Assembly (NCBI GenBank): GCA_051047955.1
Contig: JBPGPT010000019.1
Location: 248,001-312,000, forward strand
Length of the DNA: 64,000 bases
Reading direction: 5' to 3'
Source: Cystobasidiomycetes sp. EMM_F5
Lineage: Eukaryota
The notes beneath the pieces were generated by a model. It was given only the letters and a program-made list of their open reading frames with translations. It made no database searches and was not told the origin of the DNA. The position numbers and the translations under genes were made by a program. Positions within the stretch are counted from its first letter, which is position 1; each line of letters begins with the position of its first letter. This document shows, in pieces, positions 36,926 through 53,146 of this stretch.

Positions 36926-39086
36926 CTACTCCTCGCCAACATCACCAAGCGCATTGACGACGCTCAGCCTGTTTCTTCCTCCAGCCAACTGTCTTCCCGG
37001 CTGTCCGTTGCCCGCTTGCGAGTACTGCGAAGGCTGTCTATATGGCCCATCTCCACCTTGCGAGTTCATCGTTCCGGATCCATCAAACCCGTATTCCGGC
37101 ATGTTGCCGACTTGATAGTTGTTTGCGGCGTATGAAGCGATTGATCCCGTTCGTCCCAGTCCGGCGGCAGCTACACCTGCTCCTGCTGCTCCTGCACCCG
37201 CCGCTGCACCGGCACCAGCAGTAGGATGATAGCCGTCCATTCCTCCTGCACCTTCGTATCCAGCTGGACCGCCATACGCCGGCTGAGCATTATTGTAGTA
37301 ATTATGCTGCTGTCCAACAGGATCGTACTGATAATTCGGGTACTGTCCGTTATGCGAGTATGCAGATTGAGGCGGTGAACGCTCTGGAGAGTATTGTGCA
37401 TTTCCAGCATGGCCGTCTGAAGAGTGTGCGCCCGCTGCTCCGTAGTAGGCTGCCATTCCTCCATAGGCACCTGCGCCTGCTGAACCCGCCGCCGAGGAGA
37501 GGAAGGAAGGGTCACGTTCAGACATGACCCTTCCGTTTCCTGCACCTGCGCCTGCACCAGCAGCAAGAGCACCAGCGCCAAGGCCAGCAGCAGCCAATCC
37601 TTTTCCACCACCGTACCCATTCTCTCCCGTCGCTCCTCCGTCATCGAACAGCTCATCGTCATCCATATCGAACCGGTTCTGTCCTGTAGGATGCGTAGGG
37701 TTCGGGTAGAGACCCGCTGCAGTCCCGCCTGAACCCGTTGCGTCTCCCAATTCCGGCCACTTGAAATCATCAGACACCCGATTCTTTCTCCGTCGATAGA
37801 AGAATAGGCCAGCGAGAGCCAAGAGGATCAATGCACCCCCTCCGCCGACACCTGCTCCGATTCCAATCTTTGCAGAGTTGGATAGTCCACTGCTCGATCC
37901 CGTCGTCCCGCCTCCGCTATTGTCTGAGGAGGTGGTGATGGTGATGGGCTGTGTGGTAGTAATTGTCACGCCGGACTATAAACAAACGGATAAGTCAATG
38001 TCGTGTCGGACGAGTGCAAAATCGTCTACTGACTGTCGTGTATACTACGGTAGTGGACTGGGATATAGTAGTGAGAGAGGCACCTGTAGCAGAAAAGACA
38101 GTCATTGTCAGAAACGAGATAAGTAGGCAGTAAAAAATATGCATGAAAGAGTGTCGAGGAGCGGAGAGCGAGAGGAAAGGATGCATCGGCAAAGATGAGA
38201 AATAATGAGCATGTTGATATAATGAGAGGGAAGCAGAGAGGGTGAATCGGGCAGAGAATGAACGCTACGATCGCCTGCTTGCGCATCCTCCGGAGCGGCA
38301 TTACTAAAAGTATGCATGGAAGAGTGTCGTGGAGAGGACAGCACAGGGGGGTTTATGCCTCGGGAAAGTGTTGAAGACCGATGAATGTACGGGATATACC
38401 GGAGAGGGAAGAAGAGTGGATGAAGGGGTATAAAGAATGAAAGACACGACCCTGATTGCGGAGCGCACTCAAAGGAGCGCTTGTTATCGAAAAAGACGGC
38501 GTGCAAAAAAGACGGCGTGCAAAAGAGACTAGAAGAAATGAAATGCGACTGCGTGGACATTGACGTACTACTTTGCGATGTAGTACTGCTATCTGTTGTG
38601 GAGGACGGGGGTGTGGAGGAGGAGTCTGTCGAGGTAGACGCAGACGTACTGGATGTGGCTGGGGACGTTAGACGGGACATTAGACGGAGCGAGTAATGAA
38701 TACGCCGTCAGCATGCCAATTGCAGCAGGATACCAATACCCGCTCACTGCTCGACGTTGAACTACTTCTAGACGACGTCGAAGTGGTCGAAGTTGACGAG
38801 GTTGACGAGGTTGACGATGTGCTTGTCGTCGAAGTGGACGAAGTAGTGCTACTTGTCGTAGTGCTGCTGCTCGGAGTACTCGTCGTCGTCGTCGTCGTGC
38901 TCGTCGTTGCCGGCCTCGTTGTCGTCGGCGAGATGGACAGGCTCCCGGGAAGAGTTGGGGTGACTAGGGTTGCCCTAGAGTGACAGGAGCAGGGTAATAG
39001 TAGAGTATCAGCACCTGAATGGACGTATAATACTCCTCCCCGCTGGCCATATGCCCGATATGTCCAGTGCCCTCATTCAATGCCAT
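36926..39086 (-). CDS. Ser/Thr-rich single-pass membrane protein (Mid2/Skg6-like architecture); start approximate
   Basis: Long TTSS-rich ectodomain exons, TM SNSAKIGIGAGVGGGGALILLALAGLFFY followed by RRRK, Gly/Tyr-rich cytoplasmic tail; 485-nt intron 38084-38568. Confidence 0.8.
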
Positions 39087-39574
39087 TGCCGGATTTGACC
39101 TGTGCTCACATTCTGACGAGTCACCCAATGTTGCGAGTATTGATTGTATATGTATGTGTGTGTATGTGATTATAATGTCGCTCCTCTTGTCTGATGTCGT
39201 TCAAAATGAAAAGACTGCCCTTCTTTGTGCCAACTTTTGACGGAGTCCTCGCAGTGGCGGTGACCGGGCAGTGCATGAGAACATATCACTACAGAGCAGG
39301 GAGAGTGAGAGGGCAGCATATGGCACTAGACGGGCAGGTTGTGCTGGAATATGGGCAATTCGATGGGTATATACTGAGACTGATATATACTAACACTGAT
39401 GTATACCCTGACACACACTAATGCTCTCATAATCCCCGCTTCACACCTCCTACCCACGACATAGCTGACAAGAATCACCTGACAACAAGCAACCTCCCAC
39501 GCGCAGTGCATTGTACTCTCGATGTTCGCACGGGGCATGCATGACAAACTGGACGGTGGGAGTGTCTGAAAAGG

Positions 39575-39580
39575 TATAAA
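39575..39580 (+). promoter_or_regulatory. TATA box upstream of array gene A
   Basis: TATAAA followed by a CT-rich tract, about 160 nt before ATG 39737. Confidence 0.55.
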
Positions 39581-39736
39581 GAGGTGTCGAGATGTTCATC
39601 CTCTCGTCTCTTTTGCACTCGCGCATCACTCGAGCCTCCCGCATCACTCAAGCCTCCCTCCCATCTACACTTTCGCATTGCTCTAAGACTCTCTTAAAAA
39701 GCAATCCACCTCACTGCCTCGGCACATTCCCCTCAA

Positions 39737-41314
39737 ATGTCTTCACCTGGAAATCGTGGCCGTGGTAACCGTAACCGTGGTCCGAATCACAGGGGTCCCA
39801 AGAATAAGAGACGAGTCATCCCTCGTGTTCCACAAGATGATCTGCTTCCGACAATCTTTGGAGGTCAACACGGTAGGATCCACATAGGCCATTTTCACCT
39901 TGGTAACGGCAGCAACAATGGTAACGGCAGCAACAATACTGCTTCCACACCCACTGTCGACATTGGTCCTCACAACGGTAAGTTTGATACTCTGCGCTTC
40001 CAGACGGCGGGTAAGAAACGTGGCTGACCTCGGATGCGCACTCATGTATGGTACCCTTTATCATCAAAGGACGGACACCCTACGGTGGCGGACGAACGCC
40101 TTACGGTGGCGGAGGACGACGAGACTCCTCTTCGAGCTCGTCTTCAGATGGCAGCGACAGCGGCAGTGTTATGTCGAGAGGAAGTATTCCGCCGCGTAGA
40201 GGATCGTTTGCTTCAATGGCCGGCCAAGGGCCTCGTGCTGGGCAGCGGCCTCAAGGGCAGCAGCATCAAGGGCAGCAACAGAGTGGGGTTCCTCCAGTGA
40301 TGATACATGCTCGGGAACTCAACATCGGTTATGAGTCACGGCCCGGATTGGCAGGCCCAGCACAACAACCACCAGCTCCGCAGCAGCCTCAGTCGAGAGC
40401 ACAAACTCCGGCAGCAAGAAATGGCAACCCAGGCCGTCCGAACCGTACTAGAAGTGCAGTACCGGCAGACGGGCAAGCCCTTGAATTTGCTAATCTCGCG
40501 CAGCAACTTTTGCAACAGGGGGGTAGAGGTACACTAATATATGCACCTAACTCCAATATGACACCTGGCCAGCCTGCAGGCGATTCGAGCGCTTCACAGC
40601 AGCAGCAGCAGCAGCGAAGAGCTGCGCAGCCTGCCCCAAGTCCTCGAAGCGCCGCCTCTGCAGTAGGACATGGAAACTCACGCACGAATGCTCCGTTCCA
40701 AGCTTCAGTCGAGCCTGCTGCTGCCAGCACGCCATCAAGGCTGGGAACCCCTTTGCCCGCCGCAAAAAATGTGCCTGTACTGCAATCGCGCAGCCAGACA
40801 CCACACATTTCGCGAGAGCCATCTCTGGACCGGCAGCAAGCGTCATTGGCGCACCCACAACCGCAACGACCGTCGTCACAATTGCTTAGGAGTGATAATG
40901 CGACAGCGGAACAACTTCTGCGTTCTTCCGGTGCTCCTCACGCATCTGGCCCGCCTTCACGTTACGTTACCTCTGCTTCAGGCTCTCGTACCACGCCGCA
41001 ACTCGTCACGGTGTCTGGTCCTTCCGTAAATTCACGGGTAGGTCAACAAGCAGGCTCCCGCCGCGGCTCCGCGTCATCAGACGTCAGCAACAGAAGTGGC
41101 AGTAAAAGTGAGTTTGTTAACATGTCAAAGCAAAAAGCAAGTGTGCTGATTTTGGTTTGACAATACTACCTGCATTCAGCTCCATTAAGTAAGTCAGCGA
41201 TACCCGTCTTGCCGTTAACCACACCTGATAAGTTTCCTATTAGCTATGGCAGAGACGGCCGCCAAAGTAGCCTTGACCAGGTCCCTGACCGGTTCTAGAT
41301 CATCCCAACGCTGA
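39737..41314 (+). CDS. Orphan disordered protein, tandem-array gene A
   Basis: Exon 1 with RG-rich start and RIHIGHFHLGNGSNN motif, long Q/S/P-rich exon, 9-nt micro-exon 41180-41188, last exon MAETAAKVALTRSLTGSRSSQR*. Confidence 0.75.
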
Positions 41315-41369
41315 AGACAAATCGTTCCCCACTCCAAAAAGACGAAGATTTGTACTCGTCGCCACTCAA

Positions 41370-41760
41370 AACGAAGCGTCCCAAAGTGCGCATAGAAGGT
41401 CTCCACACATCAACCTCATCCTGTTTTACATCGCTAACCCAAAAAAAAATAAGGCAACAAACATGCGCCGTTATTCTCTGTAGACTACTTCTTGTTGTAT
41501 ACTAGTCTTTATCAAAGCTGATGTCCATTTAGCGTCGGTCTCTTCCAGATTTGTCTGATCTTGACCATCAAACAACATGGCACACAGATAACTGGCCTTT
41601 GTTTCGCTCGAACACTCGCAACACGAACTATGTAATGCGGGCAGTGGTCACATCTGTCGTCTGGAGGTTGCGTAAAATATGTCCTGACGACCTGCAGCAG
41701 AATGCACTGCGTCGCAGCGACTTTAAGCTATCGCGGTAGCCAGTCAGACCAGTCACTGGA
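41370..41760 (+). repeat. Duplicated downstream/intergenic block, copy A (core 41459-41508)
   Basis: Aligns by eye with 43735-44055 (GAAGGTCTCCACAC, CATCGCTAACCCAAAA, AAACATGCGCCG, CTGTAGACTACTTCTTGTTGTATACTAGTC, AGCCAGTCAGACCA). Confidence 0.9.
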
Positions 41761-42199
41761 GAAGGTCTAGAAGATGCAGAAGACTTTGCTGAGGGTTTGG
41801 ATAGACTGACTGAGTGACAGAGGGCAGAAATGTGTTGCACTGACGATGGTACTAACGTATGTCTACTGACATATTGATACTCGCTGATGCTGACACAAGA
41901 CGTTCACTCTCTCTTCTCTCATGGACTCTCCATCGTCCTCTGCCCCTCTCCCGCTCTCCCGCCCTATCGCCATCTCACCACATCGTCCCCGCACATGTGT
42001 ACAGCCTGCCGCTGCGCTGCAACCTACCAGGCACCGCGACAACAGTACTTACAGTGCACGGTGGACAGCGCACTTGCGTGTAGGCAGTGCTTACGCTCAC
42101 ACGCTGGCGTACAAGTGCGGATGTGCAGCTTGACAACTCCCTCTCGCTCTTTCATCACCCTCGTCTCGCTCTTTGCCACCCATACCGCTCTCATCCACC

Positions 42200-43631
42200 A
42201 TGGCTGCCCTTCAATTGACTAGTACTCTCGCATATGGCCCTCCTGGACCGAGAAACACAAGTTTGTACAAGGGCAACGTTTATATAAATGCATACAACGT
42301 CAATATCGGTTCAATCCACTATGGACCAGGCTCCAATAACGGGTATAGCCGCCCTACCATCTTCGAGAGTTCTGAAAGCCAAGATGGTAAGTAACAGCAT
42401 CACGGCAGACTTGGTGCACCGAGATGTTAAAATGTATATACGGACGGTTTAAAGATTTTAACAACGACGAACGCAACAGGAGGGAGGCTGTACCTCCAGC
42501 GCAAGTATCGGGTAGATCTGGCTCACGCAGATCGTCGCAGTCCGCCAGATCTCGTGATGGAGCGCCTGTATCTACTTCTGTGGCTCCAGCTCCCAGAATT
42601 TACGCTACCGGACCTGCGCGTAGACAGACTTCAGGTCCAGTACTAAACCACCCTTCGACTCAAGGGCTCCCTCGCGTTCCGGCACGCTCACAAGGTCCGA
42701 TTATCAGCACTGGCCTGGTGCAGCCGGTCGGTCGAGGCATTACGGACAGTGAGTGCGGTGTGGCTCAGCTGAAAGCGTCTAAATCTGACGAGGATGACTC
42801 TTCATGAAATGTAGGCACTCACTCACCTGGAAGAGCAACATCTATTTATGGTGCAGCTGCTGCGTGGGATGCAAACAACGCTGGTAGCCAGTTGATGCCG
42901 CGTCCAAACACCCAACGAACAGCTACAGGTCCGGAGACTATGATTGCCAACGATGTCAGCGCCCCCTATGCTGCTCCGCAAAGGCGGTCATCATCTCGAG
43001 GCAGTCGACGGCCAAGCTCATCTGCTGTCAGCCCAAACACAACATCTGTCCCGCTTCCGACGACAGTTGAAACGGTTCCAAACACGCCTGTCGATCCAAG
43101 GTCGACATCGCGCCGTACAACGCCGATCAGCATGAGACCCGCACTCACGTTGCAGACGGGTGACTTGCCCAGGGATTATTCGCTGACGGATCGTATGGAC
43201 AGCACACCATCTGGACCTCTCGCGAGTAACGGCGTGGCCCTTGATCGTGTGTACGGCTACGAGCCCCAACTGCCTCAATCAACTGTATCTTCAGGGCGAA
43301 ATTCTATTGCTTCACAAGCAGCATATCATGCCAATACGATACGTCGTGGCAGCACCCGCAGCAATAGTAAGCCGTCGTCTTTCAGCCTAACGCACATGCG
43401 TGCAATGATCTAACGAGAGCGTCTCCATCAGTGTCAAATACGTCCGCAACTACTACGCCTCATACTGTCGTCGCTAGAGGCTCAACAAGTCAGCTACCAT
43501 ATTCAATTAGCAGACTCTACGCCAACTCCATTGCTGACTGTTTCTGTACAGATGCTGCATCCGCCGCCGCTGCTGCTGCTATGCGTCGGGCTTCTGTGTC
43601 GAGAATGGCATCGCCAAATATGCAGAATTGA
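42200..43631 (+). CDS. Orphan disordered protein, tandem-array gene B
   Basis: Exon 1 VYINAYNVNIGSIHYGPGSNNG; S/R/P-rich exons separated by GT-AG introns; last exon DAASAAAAAAMRRASVSRMASPNMQN*. Confidence 0.75.
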
Positions 43632-43734
43632 CGGCCTTTAGCGATCCATGGGAAACGGCTCATGTCGATAGTGACAGCCAGGCAAGACGCTCAGCACCCT
43701 GCTACACCAGCTTGGTGATTCTTGCCCATTCAAG

Positions 43735-44055
43735 ACGAAGCGTTCCGATGTGCGCCTAGAAGGTCTCCACACCTCAACATCATACTGTTTTGCATCGCTA
43801 ACCCAAAAAACAAGGCAAGAAACATGCGCCGCTACTTTCTGTAGACTACTTCTTGTTGTATACTAGTCCTTGTCAATGCTTACGTCCTTTTCGCGTCGGT
43901 CTCTCCAGATTAGTAGTCTGACCTTGACCACTAACAACGTCGCCTGCGGATGCACGGCGCTGGTTCCGCTCGAACACTTGCAATAAGAACCATGCAACAG
44001 ATGCGGGCACTGTTCCAGGCTATCGCGAAAGCCAGTCAGACCAACCACTGCGAGC
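43735..44055 (+). repeat. Duplicated downstream/intergenic block, copy B (core 43820-43868)
   Basis: Near-identical segments shared with 41370-41760. Confidence 0.9.
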
Positions 44056-44335
44056 AGCTCAAGGCTGTCACATCCGCAAGGACAGCTCGCGCACACTGAC
44101 GAGCCTGACGCTGCCCTCGTTCTGCTGACTTCTCACGCAAAGTGACCGCTGACTGCTGACCCGCTGACGCTTTCCCAGAGACAGCTGTGCAGATGCCTGT
44201 CGAGGCGGAGCAGACTGCAGACGTCGAGTAGACTATTTAATGCGCACTTGTGCCTTCATCTCCTCTTCTGCTCTCCAGTCCTCCAGCTACAGACTCCTCC
44301 TCCACCTGTCACATCCCCGTCACTAGGGCACCACC

Positions 44336-45917
44336 ATGGAAGACGTAAACCGAGAGACTGGAATGTATATTCGAAGTGATCTTCTAAAATCCAAACAGCG
44401 CCGCCCATCACTCGGACGAAAAGCATCGAGTGACTCGCTGTCGATTTGGGGGGGCCCTAGTGCAGCGTCAGCCAGCAATGTCTTACGAATCACCGGTGGC
44501 AATAATTACTTCAATGGTTTACACATCGGCGGTGGAACAAATTCATCTAGAGCGACGATATACGGCACCTGGAGAGAAGGTCGGTTTTTGTCATCGAGAA
44601 GAAGACGCTCAAGCGTGAAGGGCTGATGACATGTTTCACTCTCTTCAGATGGAAGACGTCCCTCCTTTGATGGGCCGGCACCATTTGGACCACCAGGATC
44701 ACAAGCAGGGATGAGAAGGACATCTGCATCTGATTCTAATCGTGCAGGATCAATTGCTCCAGTAAACAGGCGGACATCCATCCCAGATGCTAATTCAGGA
44801 GGTCCAGTAGGATCAGCCCCGCAAATGGACGGGCAGCCAAACAATCAGTCTGGCTATCAGCGACCGCCAATGCAACAACAGCCTGGTCTGCCCCGCCAAC
44901 CCGGTTACAATCCTCCTGCCCTGGTCCCAGCAGGAGAGATCCGCTGGCTGCCAAATGGGGAGGAATTGGAAGGAATATTCGGAGGTACCGGCAGTGACGG
45001 CGGACGGCAAGGCAGGTCAAGAAGTGGGGGCAAGAGCAAGAAACAACCGAAAGCTCAAAAGAAGGTGTCTACCACACCTCTGGCGAATCCGCGGCAAGCC
45101 AGTCCCGGCGCTCAAGGTAATCAGGCAGCTCCAACGCAGCCGCAGCGTCGTACTTCGTCTACAGCGTCAGCAGCTATGCCGCCTCTTCGAACTACAATGC
45201 AGTCAGAACCTACCTCGCCGGCAGTCGTCAACCCCGGCGCCATTGACCAGCGAGTCCTCCTGGAGGCTGCTTCCCGGCGGTCGTCTGTATCGGTGGGACC
45301 TCGTACATCTGTCAGCAACTTGCGCCAGAGTCCGCCCAAGATCAACACTACCGTCAACTATGGCGCTCCCGCGAACCCAGCACATCGGTGGGGGTCAGTT
45401 GACTCATCTCCAGGCTCAATTAGCAATATGGGTGAGCTCAGTTGGCATTACAGTAATTGACGAAACATGCCGAATGTTTATGCAATACATTTCTCGCACA
45501 ACAGCACCGTCGCAAATCCCAAGCAGACGGAACTCGGGTCAGACCATGGTGGCAGCCATCGCTGCTCAGACCGCCTTGCCAGCATCTGGTCGCGGCTCTA
45601 ATGCATCCTCCGGCCGTAACAGCATCGGTAAGCTGTCTTCTACTGTCAGTATAGACTCGCCAAGGTGACTTAAGCCCTTGTTTTACAGTCTCGGGGAAAT
45701 CAAATTACCAGTCTGCTGGATCAACTCGGTCTTCTGTCAATGGCAGCGTTCCCAGTAAGCCTTGTCTCCTTCACATCGTTCGTGTGCCTTCGCTTACATT
45801 TTATCGATTCTATTTGGTAACTTCGCAGACGCTGCTCAAAGTGCTGCAAGGGCTGCTTTCACCAGTGCTGAACAAAGCCGCAGGAACTCTGTGGCCTCCA
45901 ACACCTCTGGACGTTGA
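44336..45917 (+). CDS. Orphan disordered protein, tandem-array gene C
   Basis: TATTTAA at 44234; exon 1 NVLRITGGNNYFNGLHIGGGTNS; last exon DAAQSAARAAFTSAEQSRRNSVASNTSGR*. Confidence 0.75.
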
Positions 45918-46082
45918 GTGGACAACTCGGCGGAATGCCGTAAACCACAGCAAAAAGAGAACGAAGTGGTCTCCACCCATCTGATCTTACCCATTTTCAT
46001 TCAGTAGAAAAAAGTGCAGCAAACATGCACAACCACTCTTCATTAGACTATTCCTGTTGTAACATCAGCCTTGTTGACTTGG
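45850..46082 (+). repeat. Duplicated last exon + 3' block, copy C (core 46021-46062)
   Basis: Aligns with 48535-48766 (CAAAGCCGCAGGAACTCTGTGGCC, CCAACACCTCTGGACGTTGAGTGGACAA, AAAAGTGCAGCAAACATGC, GCCTTGTTGACTTG). Confidence 0.9.
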
Positions 46083-46388
46083 TCGTACTCATTCCATGTA
46101 ACTATTCTCTATATTTCCTCCAACGATAGATTGCCGTTCCCTATTCTCGTCCTGACCAACATGGCATCCACCCTTCAACAGGCGACTGGCCATGTGCATA
46201 TGCAAGTCTGCAGCATCGCCATGGCAAGGATCCCATTACAACAAGTCATGTTGCACGCACTGCGAACAGTACACTGAGCCAGATCGACTGCGGTAGACGA
46301 CTACGTATATCTCAAGGAAGACTAACGCAGCCCTGCTAATCTCTCGATATGCCCATTGAAGACTCTCCAGCGGAGGTGAAGTGGACTG

Positions 46389-46418
46389 AGCCTGACTGCC
46401 TGACTGCCTGACTGCCTG
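46389..46418 (+). repeat. Short tandem repeat (GCCTGACT)x3+
   Basis: gcctgactgcctgactgcctgactgcctg read directly. Confidence 0.9.
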
Positions 46419-46843
46419 CGTATGTATAGGCTAGCCTGTTGTCTGCGGAGCGCTTTGAGGACATGCCCTAGGTTACCTCTTCAGCACATCAGCGCACGCT
46501 GACTCTAACGCTGACTCTGACACTCACGCTGACGATCTGCTTTGACTGCTGCTTTCGCGAGTAACTGACACCCCCACTACAGAACAATCGAAATGACAAT
46601 GCACATCGGGAGTGCAAAGTTGCGGCAGTGTTGGAGTACCCAGGTCAGGTCAGAGAAGGCACTGCTGACGAACTCCAGCACAGGACAGACGGGCACCACA
46701 AAGACAGCGAGGGTGGCGAGGTTTCCAGACTATAAATGCGACTTCTCCGCAGAAAAGTCCTCTCTACCTTCTTGCGTCTCTTCATTCCCAGTCCTCATCA
46801 CTTCGCTCTACATCTCGTCTGTTCGGATCCCTGTCAGCTAAGC

Positions 46844-48602
46844 ATGCAAACGGGCGGCCCCTTCACCATCTCCGCAACGCTGGTGCCAGCCGCTGTGGTC
46901 CAGCCAGGTCCACCACCACCGCCAAGTCGTCCTCCGTCTCGTTCTAATCAAATTCCGCCCCCACCTCCACCTGGATCTCAAGGACAGGGTCAAATGCCAG
47001 ATGTACTGCGTCTTTCGAGACGAGACTCGCACAACAGTTTGTCCGATCGCTCATCGACTCCGCAGACACCTGTGCTCGGCTACGATCACGGGAACCGCTT
47101 CTGCGTCTCTGGGAACGGGAACGTTCTCAACATTGCAAGCCTGAACATCGGCAACGGACCGAATCATTCTTCCACAACACTGCCTGGTTTCCTGCCCGGT
47201 GGCCATGGCGGTGAGCTTATTGAATGAGCTTATTACATGGTCAATGCCAGTTCTTACGCTGACGTGTAGGTTTATTTTCGCTGAATGATCCGGCTGGCAT
47301 AGGAAAAACTGGTCGACGAGGGTACGGCGGACGTAACCGTCGACGACCATCATCGTCTACTGCATCGCAATACTCGGATACCCATCAAACTCCGAGAGGT
47401 GGTGGCCTGTATCAGCAGCAGCGGTGGCCGACTGGTACACTGCAACAGTTGCCTGTTCAATCACAGGCGCCACAAATTCCACAGCTGCAAGATCGACGGC
47501 AAATTTCCACTGTGCCGGACGGTCGGCCCACAAGTGGCCAAAACACATCTCGTGTCGTCGTTCCGGGTAAACAATATCAGGGGCCCAGCGTTCAGCGATT
47601 GGGACATTTGCCCCCTATTGACACTTCACAGCAGCGCCGATCCACTCAAACTGCACCACCCACTGCGCCGCCGCAGGGTCAACCTAGTACTACAGGACGG
47701 GACCGTTCGGGTTTTCCACAGGCCACCAGCAATCCCAATGGTCCTCCCACACACCGTGTACCGATCTCAGGCGGCGAGGGCAATGAGATGCCTCGTAAAC
47801 CGCAATCTCAACAGCCTACAGTCGAGTCCGTAGACAGTACGCCAGTCATCCCAAATCGTGGCACCGTGAACCAAAAAAGGACGGTGCAGAGTGTCTCTCA
47901 GTCACCGCAAGTCACGTCAACAACTCCGCTGGAGCCGCGCGGAACGTCCTCACAGGCTCTTTATGGTTCTCCTGGGCGCGCCAGTCAGAGTCCAGCCCAG
48001 ATCAGAACTAGCTCCCAGACTAGGCCACTCGGGCTCCAGTTGTCTGAACAGTCACCGAAGACTGGTACTGGGTCGAGAGTGGCAAGCCGAACTTCGTCAG
48101 TTGCCACGTCTCGGCGCACACAAATTCTCAGCACGGGTAAGCTCATTTGAACACAATGGTTGACGAAACATACCGAATGATCATGCAACTCTTTTCCTTG
48201 CGCAACAGCACCGCCGCAAGTTACAGGCAGACGCGGCTCCGGTCAGGGCTCGGAGGTGGGAGCGTCCGCTGCTGATATTGCGTTGCCGCCATCGCGTCGC
48301 CACTCAAATTCCTCCGCTGGCGGCATCAAAATTAGTGAGCTGTCATCAACCGCCAAAATAAATTGTCTCGGAGGCTTATGCATATTGGTCAGCAGCTCCT
48401 CACGGGTCAATTGAGTCTGCTCACGGTAGCGTACCTGGTAAGCCTTTTCTCCATAGATTCGTACCGTTAGATTTCCCTGAGATTTTATCGATTCTATTGG
48501 ATAAACGTCGCAGGCGCTGCTGCAATCGCTGCAAAGGCTGCTTGGACCGGGGCTGCACAAAGCCGCAGGAACTCTGTGGCCACCAACACCTCTGGACGTT
48601 GA
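46844..48602 (+). CDS. Orphan disordered protein, tandem-array gene D
   Basis: TATAAA at 46731; exon 1 Pro-rich then FCVSGNGNVLNIASLNIGNGPNHS; last exon GAAAIAAKAAWTGAAQSRRNSVATNTSGR*. Confidence 0.75.
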
Positions 48603-48766
48603 GTGGACAAGTGGCGGAATGCGTGAACCACACCCAAAAGAGAACGAAGCGTTCTCGGCCCTTCTGATGTTGGTACCAATTTCATCAACAGATAAAAGTG
48701 CAGCAAACATGCGCAAACACTCTCTGTAGACTGCTTCTTGTTGTATATCGGCCTTGTTGACTTGCG
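48535..48766 (+). repeat. Duplicated last exon + 3' block, copy D (core 48705-48747)
   Basis: Aligns with 45850-46082; core also matches copies A and B. Confidence 0.9.
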
Positions 48767-49281
48767 TTGTATCTTTATTACGTGTTGCGCTTCTCATGGC
48801 ATTCATCTCCGCAATTGCACTTGTGTCTGCGATCCCCCAACGTGCACACGGAGACTGTTTCGATGTGTAAAGGCGGACTAGTCATCATCAGGATTCCGCG
48901 CTCACCGGTACGACTGCGGGCAATTCGATTCGACTGGACTGTTGCAGTAATCCTCATCGCCAATCTTGTCGCTGACCTACCAAGATTAAGGAAACTTGAG
49001 GAGAGCAGGAATTTCGAGCCTACTGACAGACTGATGAGCCTCTGTACGGCTCGCTGCCGTCAGCCACGCAGCAAATGGGTGACCACCCTGGTCTACGCCC
49101 CGCACCGCCAGGACGTAGCTAAACATCGATAGGCAGTGAACAGTGCAGCCTACAAAAGCCACATTCTCCAGTCCGGAACACTTTGTCTTTGCTATGAACT
49201 GCTGCAAACAGCTTCATTCCATTCCTGCTCACTTGGACTCGCATTGCACAACCTCACAAACAGTCTAAACCCTCCTCAAAA

Positions 49282-50197
49282 ATGCCACCACCCGGTCATT
49301 CCAACCGCAACACACTGAGTGTATTCAACGTTCAGAGCAACGTTCAGAGGGTAAACTTGAACTGGCTGGGCTCTGTGGCAGACTTGAGTAGCCGTGGGCA
49401 GGGGCAGCGCACTCGTAAGTGCTTTTCGCGTTGTACGATGGCAACAAGGTATTTGATTAAATTTGGAACCCGTGCAGAGCAACGTCCAAATCTTCCTGCA
49501 GGAGGCAACAATGGCCGTGGGCGTCGACGTGGACGTGGTAACTGCGGCCTTGGAAATAATAACGGACAACAACGTCGCGGGTCAGATGCGGCATCAATTG
49601 CGCCATCAAACGCCTCTTCCAATCACACTCAAGCTTCCGGAGGTGCAGGGGCTGCAGCTGATCGCCCTCCGTCGCGAAATGTCAGTCCTGGCGGCGGTCG
49701 TCCACTGCCGACTTCAGGCCCTAGCGTCATCCAACCGTTTGCGACAGGCCAGAGACCTACTACCGCTGAACATGTAGGCGTGCATGGTGAGCCGATGACA
49801 TCAAGTGCTTTTGCATGTCCTCACTCCATCTTGCAGTGCCATCTGACCTCAGTCGCATGCCAATTCTGGACGAGGGTTTGTCTACCGCACATTCATCGCG
49901 GAGATCTTCTGTTGCGTCCAGTACTACCGTCCGTGAGTGCAAGCTGTCATCGATGACCTCGTTAGACACGTTAAGCTAACATCTTGTCTCAAGGCGCCAA
50001 CACTACCAACGAACATCCCGGTGAGCTTGGCATCGGAACTGGTCTTACTAGCAAATAACAACTAACAATTGCGCCTAGGTAACCTCCTGCAAGGAATTAC
50101 AGGCGCCGCCAGCAGTCTTGTGCAGGGCTACAAAAACGGTTTCGCCGCAGGTAATCGTGGAGATCCCCGCTTCCGATTTCTCGGCGGCGGATGTTAA
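49282..50197 (+). CDS. Orphan disordered protein, tandem-array gene E (shorter, more divergent)
   Basis: Exon 1 LSVFNVQSNVQRVNLNWLG; RG/NG-rich exon 2 with QRRGS; SRRSSVASS; phase-consistent introns; last exon GNLLQGITGAASSLVQGY...FLGGGC*. Confidence 0.65.
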
Positions 50198-50463
50198 GCT
50201 GGGCACGAGATGTGAGTCAAGGCCAACTGCTACCATAATGGTTAGTCGGCAAAAGAGTTCTGCCAGCCCGGACTGCCTTTCAAGTAGCTGTTGTGGCTTT
50301 ATCAAAACCCACAACCCCAATGATTTCAAGCACTGTGTATTCTGAAACGGTTGCGGGGGCAGACGGATATCAGGCATGCTTTTCGCGACACATCATTCTT
50401 TCGCATGCTCTACTCTACTGATTGACAATGTGAGCCATCGCGACGCCGCTACACAAGGCTGAT

Positions 50464-53146
50464 TTACGACGACAAGAAGCTCTCAATGTGATCTTGTGCG
50501 ACCTTCTTCATGCGCGCTTCCAACTCTTTCGAGGTAGCACCCTTGCTGATCTCCTTCAACAAGTCAGTCTGCGACGATCGGAGGTGGGAGTGGAATGCCT
50601 TCTCCCAGGCAAGGATCTGCCAATGAGAAATGAGAATCAGTCTCAGAGTCACCAAAGGACCACTGTGCAGTATAGACTTACCTTGTCGACTGGAATCTTG
50701 TCCAGCAGACCATTGACACCGCTGAATCCATTAAGTTGAACAATCAGCTCATCAGTCTAATGCAGACAACGGCGCAAACATACGCAGAGATGGTAGGAGC
50801 CATGACCTCGAAGCTCTGAGGTTGGTATTGCGGCTGCTTGAGCAATTCTACGAGACGGGAACCACGGGCGAGCAGCTGCAACAGATCTGTATTAGCGAGG
50901 ACCATAGCGCTGAGTGCGTGCAGAGGTAGCTTACGTATCGGGTAGACGCATCGAGATCGGAACCGAACTGAGCAAAGGCGGCGACATCACGGTACTGGGC
51001 AAGGTAGAGTTTCAGGGAACCAGATACGGCTTTCATGACCTGAAAGAATAGGCAAGCAAATCAGCCCTGTTCCACTTGGCATACGAGGCCATATCGTCTC
51101 ACCTTGTACTGAGCAGCGGAACCGACACGGGATACAGACAGACCGACATTGATGGCTGGACGGACACCCTTGAAAAAGAGTTCGGCTTCCAAAAAGATCT
51201 GACCGTCTGTGATTGAAATGACATTGGTGGGAATATAGGCAGACACATCACCACCCTGGGTCTCAATGACTGGGAGAGCAGTGAGGGATCCTCCACCGTG
51301 AGCGTCATTCATCTTTGCAGCACGCTCGAGCAGACGAGAGTGGAGGTAGAAGACGTCTCCCGGGTAAGCCTCACGACCAGGAGGACGACGGAGCAGGAGC
51401 GACATTTGACGGTATGCGACAGCCTGCTTGGACAGATCGTCGTAAATGATGAGGGCGTGCTTGCCATTGTCGCGGAACCACTCTCCCATGGCGGTACCAG
51501 AGAAGGGAGCGAGGTATTGAAGTGGGGCCGCTTCGGAAGCGGTAGCGGCAACGACAATGCAGTACTTCATGGCATCATTCTCCTCGAGCGTCTGCACGAG
51601 CTGGGCGACGGTAGATCGCTTTTGACCAACGGCGACGTAGATGCAGTAGAGCTTCTGCGCCTCGTTGGTGCCATTGTTCCATTGCTTTTGGTTCAACATG
51701 GTATCGAGAGCGACGGCAGTCTTTCCGGTTTGACGATCACCGATGATGAGTTCTCGCTGTCCTCGTCCAATCGGTACCATTGCGTCGACGGCCTTGAGAC
51801 CAGTCATCATTGGCTGCGGAGAATGTCAATTCGTTAAATGTGAAGGAGAAGAGGTAGTCTGCAATGTCACCCACCTGATTTACGGATCGTCGGGGCAGTA
51901 CACCTGGCGCCTTGAGGGTCGTACGTCTGCGCTCTGTAGTCTTGACTGGGCCCTTGCCGTCGACTGCAAACTTGGCGTAAACATGCTATCTTCGATGGGG
52001 TAGCAATCTTGAAACACGTACTTGGGTTACCCAGAGCATCAACAACACGTCCGAGCATCTCTGGTCCAACTGGGACATCGATAACCTGGCCGGTACGCTT
52101 GACAGTGTCGCCTTCCTTGATTGTTCGATCGGACGCGAAGATGGTGATACCGACCTGCGCGTGGACATGCATTAGCAGGTTGCAAGACCGCGTTTGGTGC
52201 AATGCTCACGTTATCGGCCTCCAAATTCAAGCACTGTAGTACTTATGTTAGTCGGTGCACGTCCTTGCGGTGTACGAGGCTACTGACCATGCCGCGTACG
52301 CCAGACTGGAATTCCACCATCTCCTCGGCTTGCACATTTCGGAGACCGTAGACACTAATGAGTGAGAAAGTAAAGGTATGTGTGAGCGGGAATGCACACA
52401 CGACCGTGCATCGTCAGGCACTACCCACCGTGCGATACCATCACCAATAGTCAAGACCTGCCATGTTTGTCAACATCAACATCTAGACAACCAGCACTAC
52501 TGCTCGACGACAGTAATGTATACCTTTCCAGTCTCGGCCATGTCAATGTCGGATGAAGAGTTTGAGATGCGGGATTCGAGGATTGAGGCGACCTCGGAAG
52601 CGGCTGCGAGTAGTGAGTGTCAGTACGCTTCGAGCTGCAAGAGTCGCACGGGGCGCATCCACGACGTCCACACTGCCATGCTCGCTGTGTAGTGTCCGCT
52701 GCTGTCCAGTCTTTTCAACACGACCATCTCCGATCAGATCTCGCTGGGAGGGGATGGAAGTGAGACGGCGAGCGAGAGACGGCAGCAACGAGGACAGCGA
52801 GCAGTCGCAATGCCGTGGATGGCTCTGCGGTAATTCATCAGTCAACACCCACCCGGCTTTGCGGTTGCATAGCTTCTTTTGGCAGAGACTGCGACTGGAA
52901 ACGAAACATGAGTTTTCCTGCTCAGCCGTGGACACCAAACCGGACGGCGGTCGGAGCTGGCTCACTGCGAGCGCTGCGGGACAGAGCTGGTGCAGCTTGA
53001 CGGCGCAGCTGTTGTCGAAGTCGCAATCGTTGGATGGGCGTCGTCGGTGGTTCTTTGCTTCAGCCTTCAATTCAATTCATTTCCCAGCAAAGTCGCAGAC
53101 CCACCACGCTCGAGGCCGTGCGGCTGATTGCCCTGGCCGACATCAT
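50464..53146 (-). CDS. ATP1: Mitochondrial F1Fo ATP synthase subunit alpha, multi-exon
   Basis: Presequence [99 protein letters not shown]. Confidence 0.99.

Follow-up and report, generated by a model that had tools for sequence, protein, structure and literature searches.

In a 64,000-nucleotide stretch of the genome of Cystobasidiomycetes sp. EMM_F5 (contig JBPGPT010000019.1, positions 248,001 to 312,000; hereafter the window), a tandem array of five genes, designated A to E and all located on the forward strand, was modeled by a splice-path search. Genes A–D are tandem paralogs of old origin, and E belongs with them more loosely. The N-terminal halves of the A–D proteins contain one four-way conserved island, an uncharged segment of 20–27 residues with the pattern [phi-x-phi-(G/A)]-x-[phi-(H/N)-phi-G]-x-G-x-N (phi, hydrophobic residue), whose distance to a conserved phase-1 intron is constant. 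The motif is real and under selection, which acts on the protein and not on the DNA. It looks like a self-association element; it is not a proven amyloid and not a member of the RHIM family.

A conserved segment in exon 1 of the array genes

The motif was described by the regular expression [ILVFYM][HNQ][ILVFYM]G.G, which was run on the six-frame translation of the whole window. Exactly four matches were found (39893, 42314, 44519 and 47141), all in exon 1 and one each in A, B, C and D, with the motif core 28, 24, 20 and 23 codons upstream of the first intron, respectively. This intron is of phase 1 in all five genes and is 59–92 nt long (donors GTAAGT, GTAAGT, GTCGGT, GTGAGC and GTAAGT in A to E). 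Exon 1 itself comprises 62–122 codons, and its sequence outside the motif is highly variable. A shared exon 1 motif had been proposed in an earlier sequence-only reading of this DNA, and in A–D the proposal held at the protein level. All five peptides quoted there (GRIHIGHFHLGNGSNN, YNVNIGSIHYGPGSNN, GNNYFNGLHIGGGTNS and NVLNIASLNIGNGPNH in A to D, and FNVQSNVQRVNLNWLG in E) were recovered from the forward-strand translation at the places it had assigned to them.

In A, the segment consists of IHIGHFHLGNGSNN and the duplicated GNGSNN (39878..39937). The corresponding segments are VYINAYNVNIGSIHYGPGSNN in B (42278..42340), ITGGNNYFNGLHIGGGTNS in C (44489..44545) and FCVSGNGNVLNIASLNIGNGPNH in D (47099..47167). 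The doubling of GNGSNN was correctly recognized in the sequence-only reading as an 18-nt repeat, an exact tandem copy that occupies 39902-39937, one base off the 39901-39936 given there. Once this duplication is removed, the A and B motifs align without gaps. MAFFT applied to the full proteins misaligned the motif, and an anchored alignment (A3) was used instead. In A3, proteins A, B and D share phi-[HN]-I-[GA]-x-phi-[HN]-phi-G-x-G-x-N; C has one residue fewer before the tetrad and Y-F-N-G in place of the upstream phi-x-phi unit. The core tetrads are FHLG, IHYG, LHIG and LNIG, with the final G in all four and H or N as the central residue.

Gene E shares the exon structure of A–D and not the motif pattern. 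It had been listed as a weaker member, and a degenerate counterpart is indeed present (FNVQSNVQRVNLNWLG, 49324-49371, forward strand), although it falls outside the regular expression, contains R and D and lacks G-x-G-x-N. By eye, this part of E also contains a 12-nt tandem duplication (CAACGTTCAGAG twice, 49326-49349) that generates an NVQS/NVQR repeat. Exon 2 of A opens with a 21-nt tandem duplication (40069-40110), which encodes GRTPYGG twice. Small in-frame tandem duplications seem to be common in this gene family.

A second copy of the motif had also been claimed for A. The peptide exists (VMIHARELNIGY, 40297-40332, forward strand, exon 2; tetrad at residue 164) and is the most hydrophobic 12-mer of the protein. 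We regard it as weak because it shares with the motif only the tetrad LNIG, contains R and E, has no positional counterpart in B or D, and such tetrads are expected by chance at ~0.21 per shuffled A.

Conservation at the level of protein

Over 15 aligned codons of the A–D motifs, 22 of the 33 pairs of identical residues differ in the codon used, and identity at third positions over the aligned motif codons is 0.20–0.47. No DNA similarity between the gene units was detected by blastn outside their 3' flanks. Thus, the motif has been held at the protein level in old duplicates. When A or B served as the reference, it scored highest for four-way conservation among all 14-mers of the whole proteins; with B, its score was 106, as compared with 83.7 +/- 5.0 in shuffled sequences, and 1 of 200 shuffles reached it. 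In addition, the phi-[HNQ]-phi-G tetrad occurs eight times in the four proteins versus 0.73 expected from shuffles, an approximately 11-fold excess.

The A–D proteins are rich in S, G, P, R, A and Q, with 15–20% aliphatic plus aromatic and 14–17% charged residues, and they are probably disordered and intracellular. The motif is located within the longest run free of D, E, K and R in A (27 residues), B (26) and D (43), and in one of the joint-longest runs in C (20). It is also the N+G-richest 20-mer of B and C. The amyloid-like make-up noted in the sequence-only reading is apparent in the alternation of hydrophobic residues with N or H, the turn glycines, the N-rich tail and the absence of charge in proteins that are otherwise 14–17% charged, and the amyloid interpretation offered there appears reasonable. 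Three other assignments were considered and rejected: a secreted or cell-wall protein (the proteins are R-rich, and by eye their N-termini are not signal-peptide-like), a metal-binding His motif (the D core has no His) and a hexapeptide left-handed beta-helix (no Pfam match).

The same proteins contain numerous R[RK]x[S/T] sites, a pattern of basophilic kinases of the protein kinase A (PKA)/AGC type. B has seven such sites (~0.9 in shuffles), C nine and D six (~1 expected), counts that were reached by 0, 0 and 1 of 1000 shuffles, respectively; A has three, reached by 84 of 1000. An RRxSS cluster is conserved just past intron 1 in all four genes, 30–45 residues after the motif, and ranks second among the four-way blocks when A or B is the reference. 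A further likeness is found at the C-termini. The last exons of C and D (45819-45925 and 48504-48610) are 88% identical in DNA and encode an Ala-rich stretch followed by QSRRNSVA[ST]NTSGR, and A and B end in a looser form of this arrangement (AA-rich, then basic/Ser).

A candidate cross-beta association element

Among the explanations considered, we tentatively favor, as the leading one of several, that the motif may be a cross-beta "sticker" for self- or hetero-association in a protein family rich in basophilic-kinase sites. A docking motif comes close behind, and a folded element, the lack of a specific function and an NLR-coupled motif trail. In the favored model, the segment would fold into two or three short beta-strands with glycine turns between them and would act as a homotypic sticker that stacks in register into a cross-beta structure, in principle as RHIMs do. 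The stacking would be driven by ladders of N/H and by the burial of aliphatic or aromatic side chains. Copies of the same protein, or co-located paralogs, could then assemble into oligomers, fibrils or condensates, and a basophilic kinase might tune this assembly through the R[RK]x[S/T] sites, which are dense and include a cluster 30–45 residues downstream. The motif would work like a RHIM- or PP-type motif without belonging to either family.

Several features argue for such a role: the four matches at the same place, the conserved intron phase and distance, the conservation at the protein level, the position in charge-free runs, the N+G richness and the tetrad excess in proteins of low overall hydrophobicity. 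A weak hint of strand propensity comes from AlphaFold2 (AF2). B exon 1 alone was modeled as all-beta (strands 6-12, 23-29, 34-41 and 53-56) with a predicted local distance difference test (pLDDT) score of 49.8, and the two middle strands of this low-confidence model coincide with the phi-x-phi segments of the motif. Modeling of the C piece with A3 gave a mean pLDDT of 65.4 and a predicted template modeling (pTM) score of 0.23, and DSSP assigned it no secondary structure; pTM values of the AF2 models were 0.22–0.23. A complex prediction with four copies of the C motif piece scored 0.02 and was counted neither way.

The properties of known motifs also bear on this question. The RHIM core is the tetrad (V/I)-Q-(V/I/L/C)-G (10.64898/2026.02.19.706818), in a motif of 18–22 residues with an aliphatic pair five residues upstream of the tetrad and glycines on either side of the central strand; the pair and tetrad positions are Y531/I533 and I539/I541 in RIPK1 and V450/I452 and V458/V460 in RIPK3. 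The PP core is the pseudopalindrome NxGxQxGxN (PMC9815663). Both amyloids depend on N/Q ladders and glycine turns, and it is these features, together with the 18–22 residue length and the aliphatic tetrad, that lend support to the sticker model. As in RHIM proteins (RIPK1, RIPK3, ZBP1 and TRIF) and in insect cRHIMs, the array motif is an uncharged segment of ~20 residues in long, probably disordered regions of non-NLR proteins, and like RHIM it has a phi-polar-phi-G tetrad after a phi-x-phi pair, glycines around the central strand and then an N. RHIMs are known to act by homo- and heterotypic pairing among several carriers. With PP of HELLP/PNT1, the array motif shares N/G richness and a G-phi-polar-phi-G center, although G occupies both the -2 and +2 positions of the central residue only in C. 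In short, the array segment has what a generic short cross-beta motif would need, i.e., ~20 uncharged residues, alternating hydrophobic and polar positions, turn glycines and N for ladders; these properties are necessary and not sufficient.

A number of findings weigh against the sticker model. Unlike RHIM, the array motif has H or N and never Q in the center (Q in none of the four copies, G in all four), its hydrophobic positions include F, Y and L, and its core runs on into G-x-G-x-N. In A, B and D, phi-x-phi-(G/A)-x directly precedes the tetrad, giving a spacer of two residues and not five. In B and D, the turn (G-P-G or G-P-N) contains a proline. AF2 gave no confident fold for the B or C pieces. 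None of 11 exon translations reached a Pfam threshold, and no Pfam family matched the five motif windows or a 28-residue piece of A exon 2 (40516-40600) at E<=10. A profile search of PDB at E<=10 returned three chance enzyme chains (E 0.11-4.9) and no RHIM chain. With C or D as the reference, the motif was outside the top four conserved blocks, which were led by the C-terminal QSRRNSVA[ST]NTSGR and RRxS. Only four sequences, from one genome, are available, with nothing found outside the locus, and the gene models are predictions, the public annotation being ab initio. Finally, short, uncharged and beta-prone features would also fit a docking motif.

The sequence-only reading had further linked the motif to RHIM and to fungal PP-type motifs. 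Pfam contains a RHIM model, and the search with this database at E<=10 is mentioned above. The pattern [IVL]Q[IVLC]G had 11 matches in the six frames of the window, none of them in the array, and NxGxQxGxN was present in none of the four copies. The sole Pfam listing for the exons, with exon-1 translations searched at E<=1, was a sub-threshold one, Rrp44_CSD1 on B exon 1 (E 0.16, 12 bits versus a cut-off of 22). Unlike PP, the array motif is not terminal and has no adjacent NLR or HeLo-like gene in the window; the hosts differ as well, a filamentous ascomycete for PP of HELLP/PNT1 and a Pucciniomycotina yeast for the array motif. The absence of NLR and HeLo genes noted in the sequence-only reading was confirmed, in that Pfam detected no NACHT, NB-ARC or HeLo domain in the 54 stop-to-stop open reading frames (ORFs) of at least 150 amino acids in the window. 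Its conclusion that this would make the use of the motif atypical is fair for fungal motifs and not for RHIM-type ones, since RHIM and cRHIM motifs operate in kinases, adaptors and receptors, i.e., in non-NLR proteins. Because Q is absent, the spacer is two residues, the PP palindrome is missing, Pfam and PDB gave no match and no NLR or HeLo domain was found in the window ORFs, homology to RHIM or PP, and membership in the RHIM, PP or NLR-coupled families, is not supported by the sequence data. What remains is a general likeness in kind to RHIM and PP motifs.

Low-complexity aromatic-rich kinked segments (LARKS), or reversible amyloid cores, are short segments of G/N/S plus aromatic residues in long disordered, phospho-regulated, phase-separating proteins, where they form weak, reversible cross-beta contacts. 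The array motif is comparable to them in being a short G/N/S plus aromatic segment in probably disordered proteins rich in R[RK]x[S/T]. It differs in that each protein has a single conserved copy, in which the phi-x-phi pattern is ordered, as opposed to many degenerate copies, and the array proteins, unlike phase-separating LARKS proteins, had no RNA-binding or other folded domain detectable with Pfam.

A bolder version of the sticker model, which we consider unlikely, is that a Pucciniomycotina yeast uses a RHIM-like module as a functional amyloid, with no NLR or pore-forming effector involved. Five co-located, rapidly diverging disordered paralogs would then co-polymerize via one compatible cross-beta motif into a mixed signaling or storage assembly switched by the dense PKA-type sites. 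If true, this would establish phi-[H/N]-phi-G-x-G-x-N as a new family of motifs and would be the first case of amyloid signaling in Basidiomycota outside Agaricomycetes. Self-assembly as such would extend functional cross-beta motifs of the RHIM/PP type to a basidiomycete yeast lineage, in a setting without an NLR or cell-death effector, and would provide a small, tractable set of paralogs for studies of heterotypic amyloid compatibility and its control by phosphorylation.

Alternative explanations

The motif may instead be a docking site, a short linear motif that adds a beta-strand to a folded partner (a kinase, phosphatase or phospho-reader of the R[RK]x[S/T] clusters) with no self-assembly. 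We regard this as possible and only slightly less probable than the sticker. A conserved island amid otherwise divergent disordered proteins, the RRxSS block that follows it in all four proteins, the enrichment of basophilic-kinase sites in B, C and D, and the lack of a confident fold of its own in AF2 models are all consistent with docking. On the other hand, 20–27 residues with two or three phi-x-phi units are more than would be expected of a docking motif. A tail rich in N and G and a total absence of charge are also atypical of known docking motifs, and no known motif class was matched in a comparison by eye with the PxIxIT, RVxF, LIR and SIM patterns. If the docking explanation is correct, the motif marks an unannotated kinase-substrate family.

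Less probable still, the motif could belong to a small folded unit, for instance a beta-hairpin or a beta-meander cap to which most of exon 1 contributes, with a structural or ligand-binding role. The four strands in the AF2 model of B exon 1 agree with this possibility. So does similarity that reaches past the core, with S-R-x-T-I-[FY] downstream of the motif in B and C and phi-x-phi-[ST]-G upstream of it in C and D. However, pLDDT values of 50–65 and pTM values of 0.22–0.23 are low for such an element, it has no Pfam or PDB relative, and exon 1 outside the motif varies widely.

It is similarly improbable that the motif has no specific function and represents a slowly decaying ancestral remnant or a by-product of N/G-rich composition. 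There are only four sequences, 1 of 200 shuffles reached the observed score, other blocks outrank the motif when C or D is the reference, and it is largely lost in E. Against this, the rest of the N-terminal halves has diverged past alignment, synonymous sites are near random, the position relative to the intron is kept in four of four genes, and the tetrad is ~11-fold above expectation.

Finally, a canonical fungal amyloid signaling motif for which an NLR or another receptor, with its gene at a different place in the genome, acts as the template, as for PP, HRAM and sigma, is very unlikely: it would account for the pattern-level resemblance to PP and RHIM, and such motifs show paralog expansion in Agaricomycetes; however, the fungal motifs (HRAM, sigma, PP, PUASM) occur at the NLR N-terminus and the effector C-terminus, usually in adjacent genes, and have so far been suggested in Basidiomycota for Agaricomycetes only, whereas the array motif is internal (residues ~35–115) to non-NLR proteins, the window ORFs contain no NACHT, NB-ARC or HeLo, no other carrier was found by the profile search described below (models lacking exon 1 would be missed), and six motif pentamers were absent from nine of the 11 supplementary files of PMC9815663.

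Database searches

A protein search with C exon 1 retrieved one protein with 100% identity, hypothetical protein EMMF5_004217 (P0001, 786 amino acids, NCBI). Word-indexed protein searches with C exon 1, P0001 and a motif alignment (A2) returned only this locus, which says little because EMM_F5, a phyllosphere (leaf-surface) yeast, has no sequenced sister taxon (PMC12697161). An exhaustive HMMER profile search with A3 against 1.84 billion representatives yielded six proteins at E<=0.001. Three of these corresponded to this locus, and the others (P0003, P0005 and P0006) were rejected as unrelated, being repeat proteins whose scores add up from numerous weak stretches; P0005 has the look of a translated repeat array. 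This search would miss relatives whose gene models omit exon 1. The data thus provide weak evidence that the family may be lineage-restricted, weak because sequenced relatives are lacking and gene models are ab initio. In ESM Atlas, the best matches of C exon 1 (0.86–0.90) were to unnamed clusters, phage tail-fibre families and DUF6342, which are below the useful range and serve as leads only, and the spliced C portion of P0001 had no usable match. An Rfam search of 39000-51000 found nothing.

Gene models and flanking regions

Splice choices in our models were steered by the paralogs, and the 3' exons of A and the 3' end of E are tentative. Gene A (39737..41314, ~452 amino acids) comprises exons 39737-39977, 40070-41107, 41180-41188 and 41244-41314. 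Gene B (42200..43631, ~389 amino acids) comprises 42200-42386, 42455-42748, 42815-43366, 43432-43488 and 43552-43631, and gene C (44336..45917, ~434 amino acids) 44336-44579, 44649-45431, 45505-45627, 45689-45754 and 45829-45917. Gene D (46844..48602, ~497 amino acids) is composed of 46844-47210, 47270-48136, 48209-48334, 48393-48437 and 48514-48602. For E, exon 1 is at 49282..49414 and is followed by the phase-1 intron 49415-49477. The neighbors of the array are housekeeping genes, e.g., those for urease, Cwc15, SDE2, ATP synthase alpha and transporters.

The EMM_F5 annotation was made with funannotate predict, and RNA data are not mentioned in the genome announcement (PMC12697161). Compared with our models, EMMF5_004217 (44336-48150) joins C and D via 3' exons of C that are spliced wrongly, places the acceptor of D exon 2 further downstream and ends before the last three exons of D; C exon 1 and the exon 1/2 junction are the same in both. 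No NCBI protein with exon 1 of A or B appeared in any protein search made, and for this reason the exon-1-bearing forms of A and B may be unannotated or mis-modeled at NCBI. Whichever explanation of the motif is correct, the public annotation of the locus needs repair, as C and D are fused and exon-1 models of A and B were not found.

By blastn, the DNA of the gene units could be aligned in the 3' flanks only. Those of A and B are 79% identical over 312 nt (41346-41649 and 43709-44015), and the 3' regions of C and D, introns included, are 71% identical over 732 nt (45394-46109 and 48096-48795). A core is shared by all four (41440-41501, 43804-43873, 46001-46081 and 48686-48757), in which the block AAACATGC...TAGACT..TTCTTGTTGTA is found ~100–130 nt past the stop codon. 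This arrangement suggests partial gene conversion or a conserved 3' untranslated region or processing element. The block contains a UGUA-type element, which we take to resemble Puf sites. Upstream of B, C and D, clusters of CTGAC/TGACTC-like words, such as GACTGCCTGACTGCCTGACTGCC, were noticed by eye (41790-41900, 44100-44180, 46385-46425 and 46500-46545), and these may be shared promoter elements.

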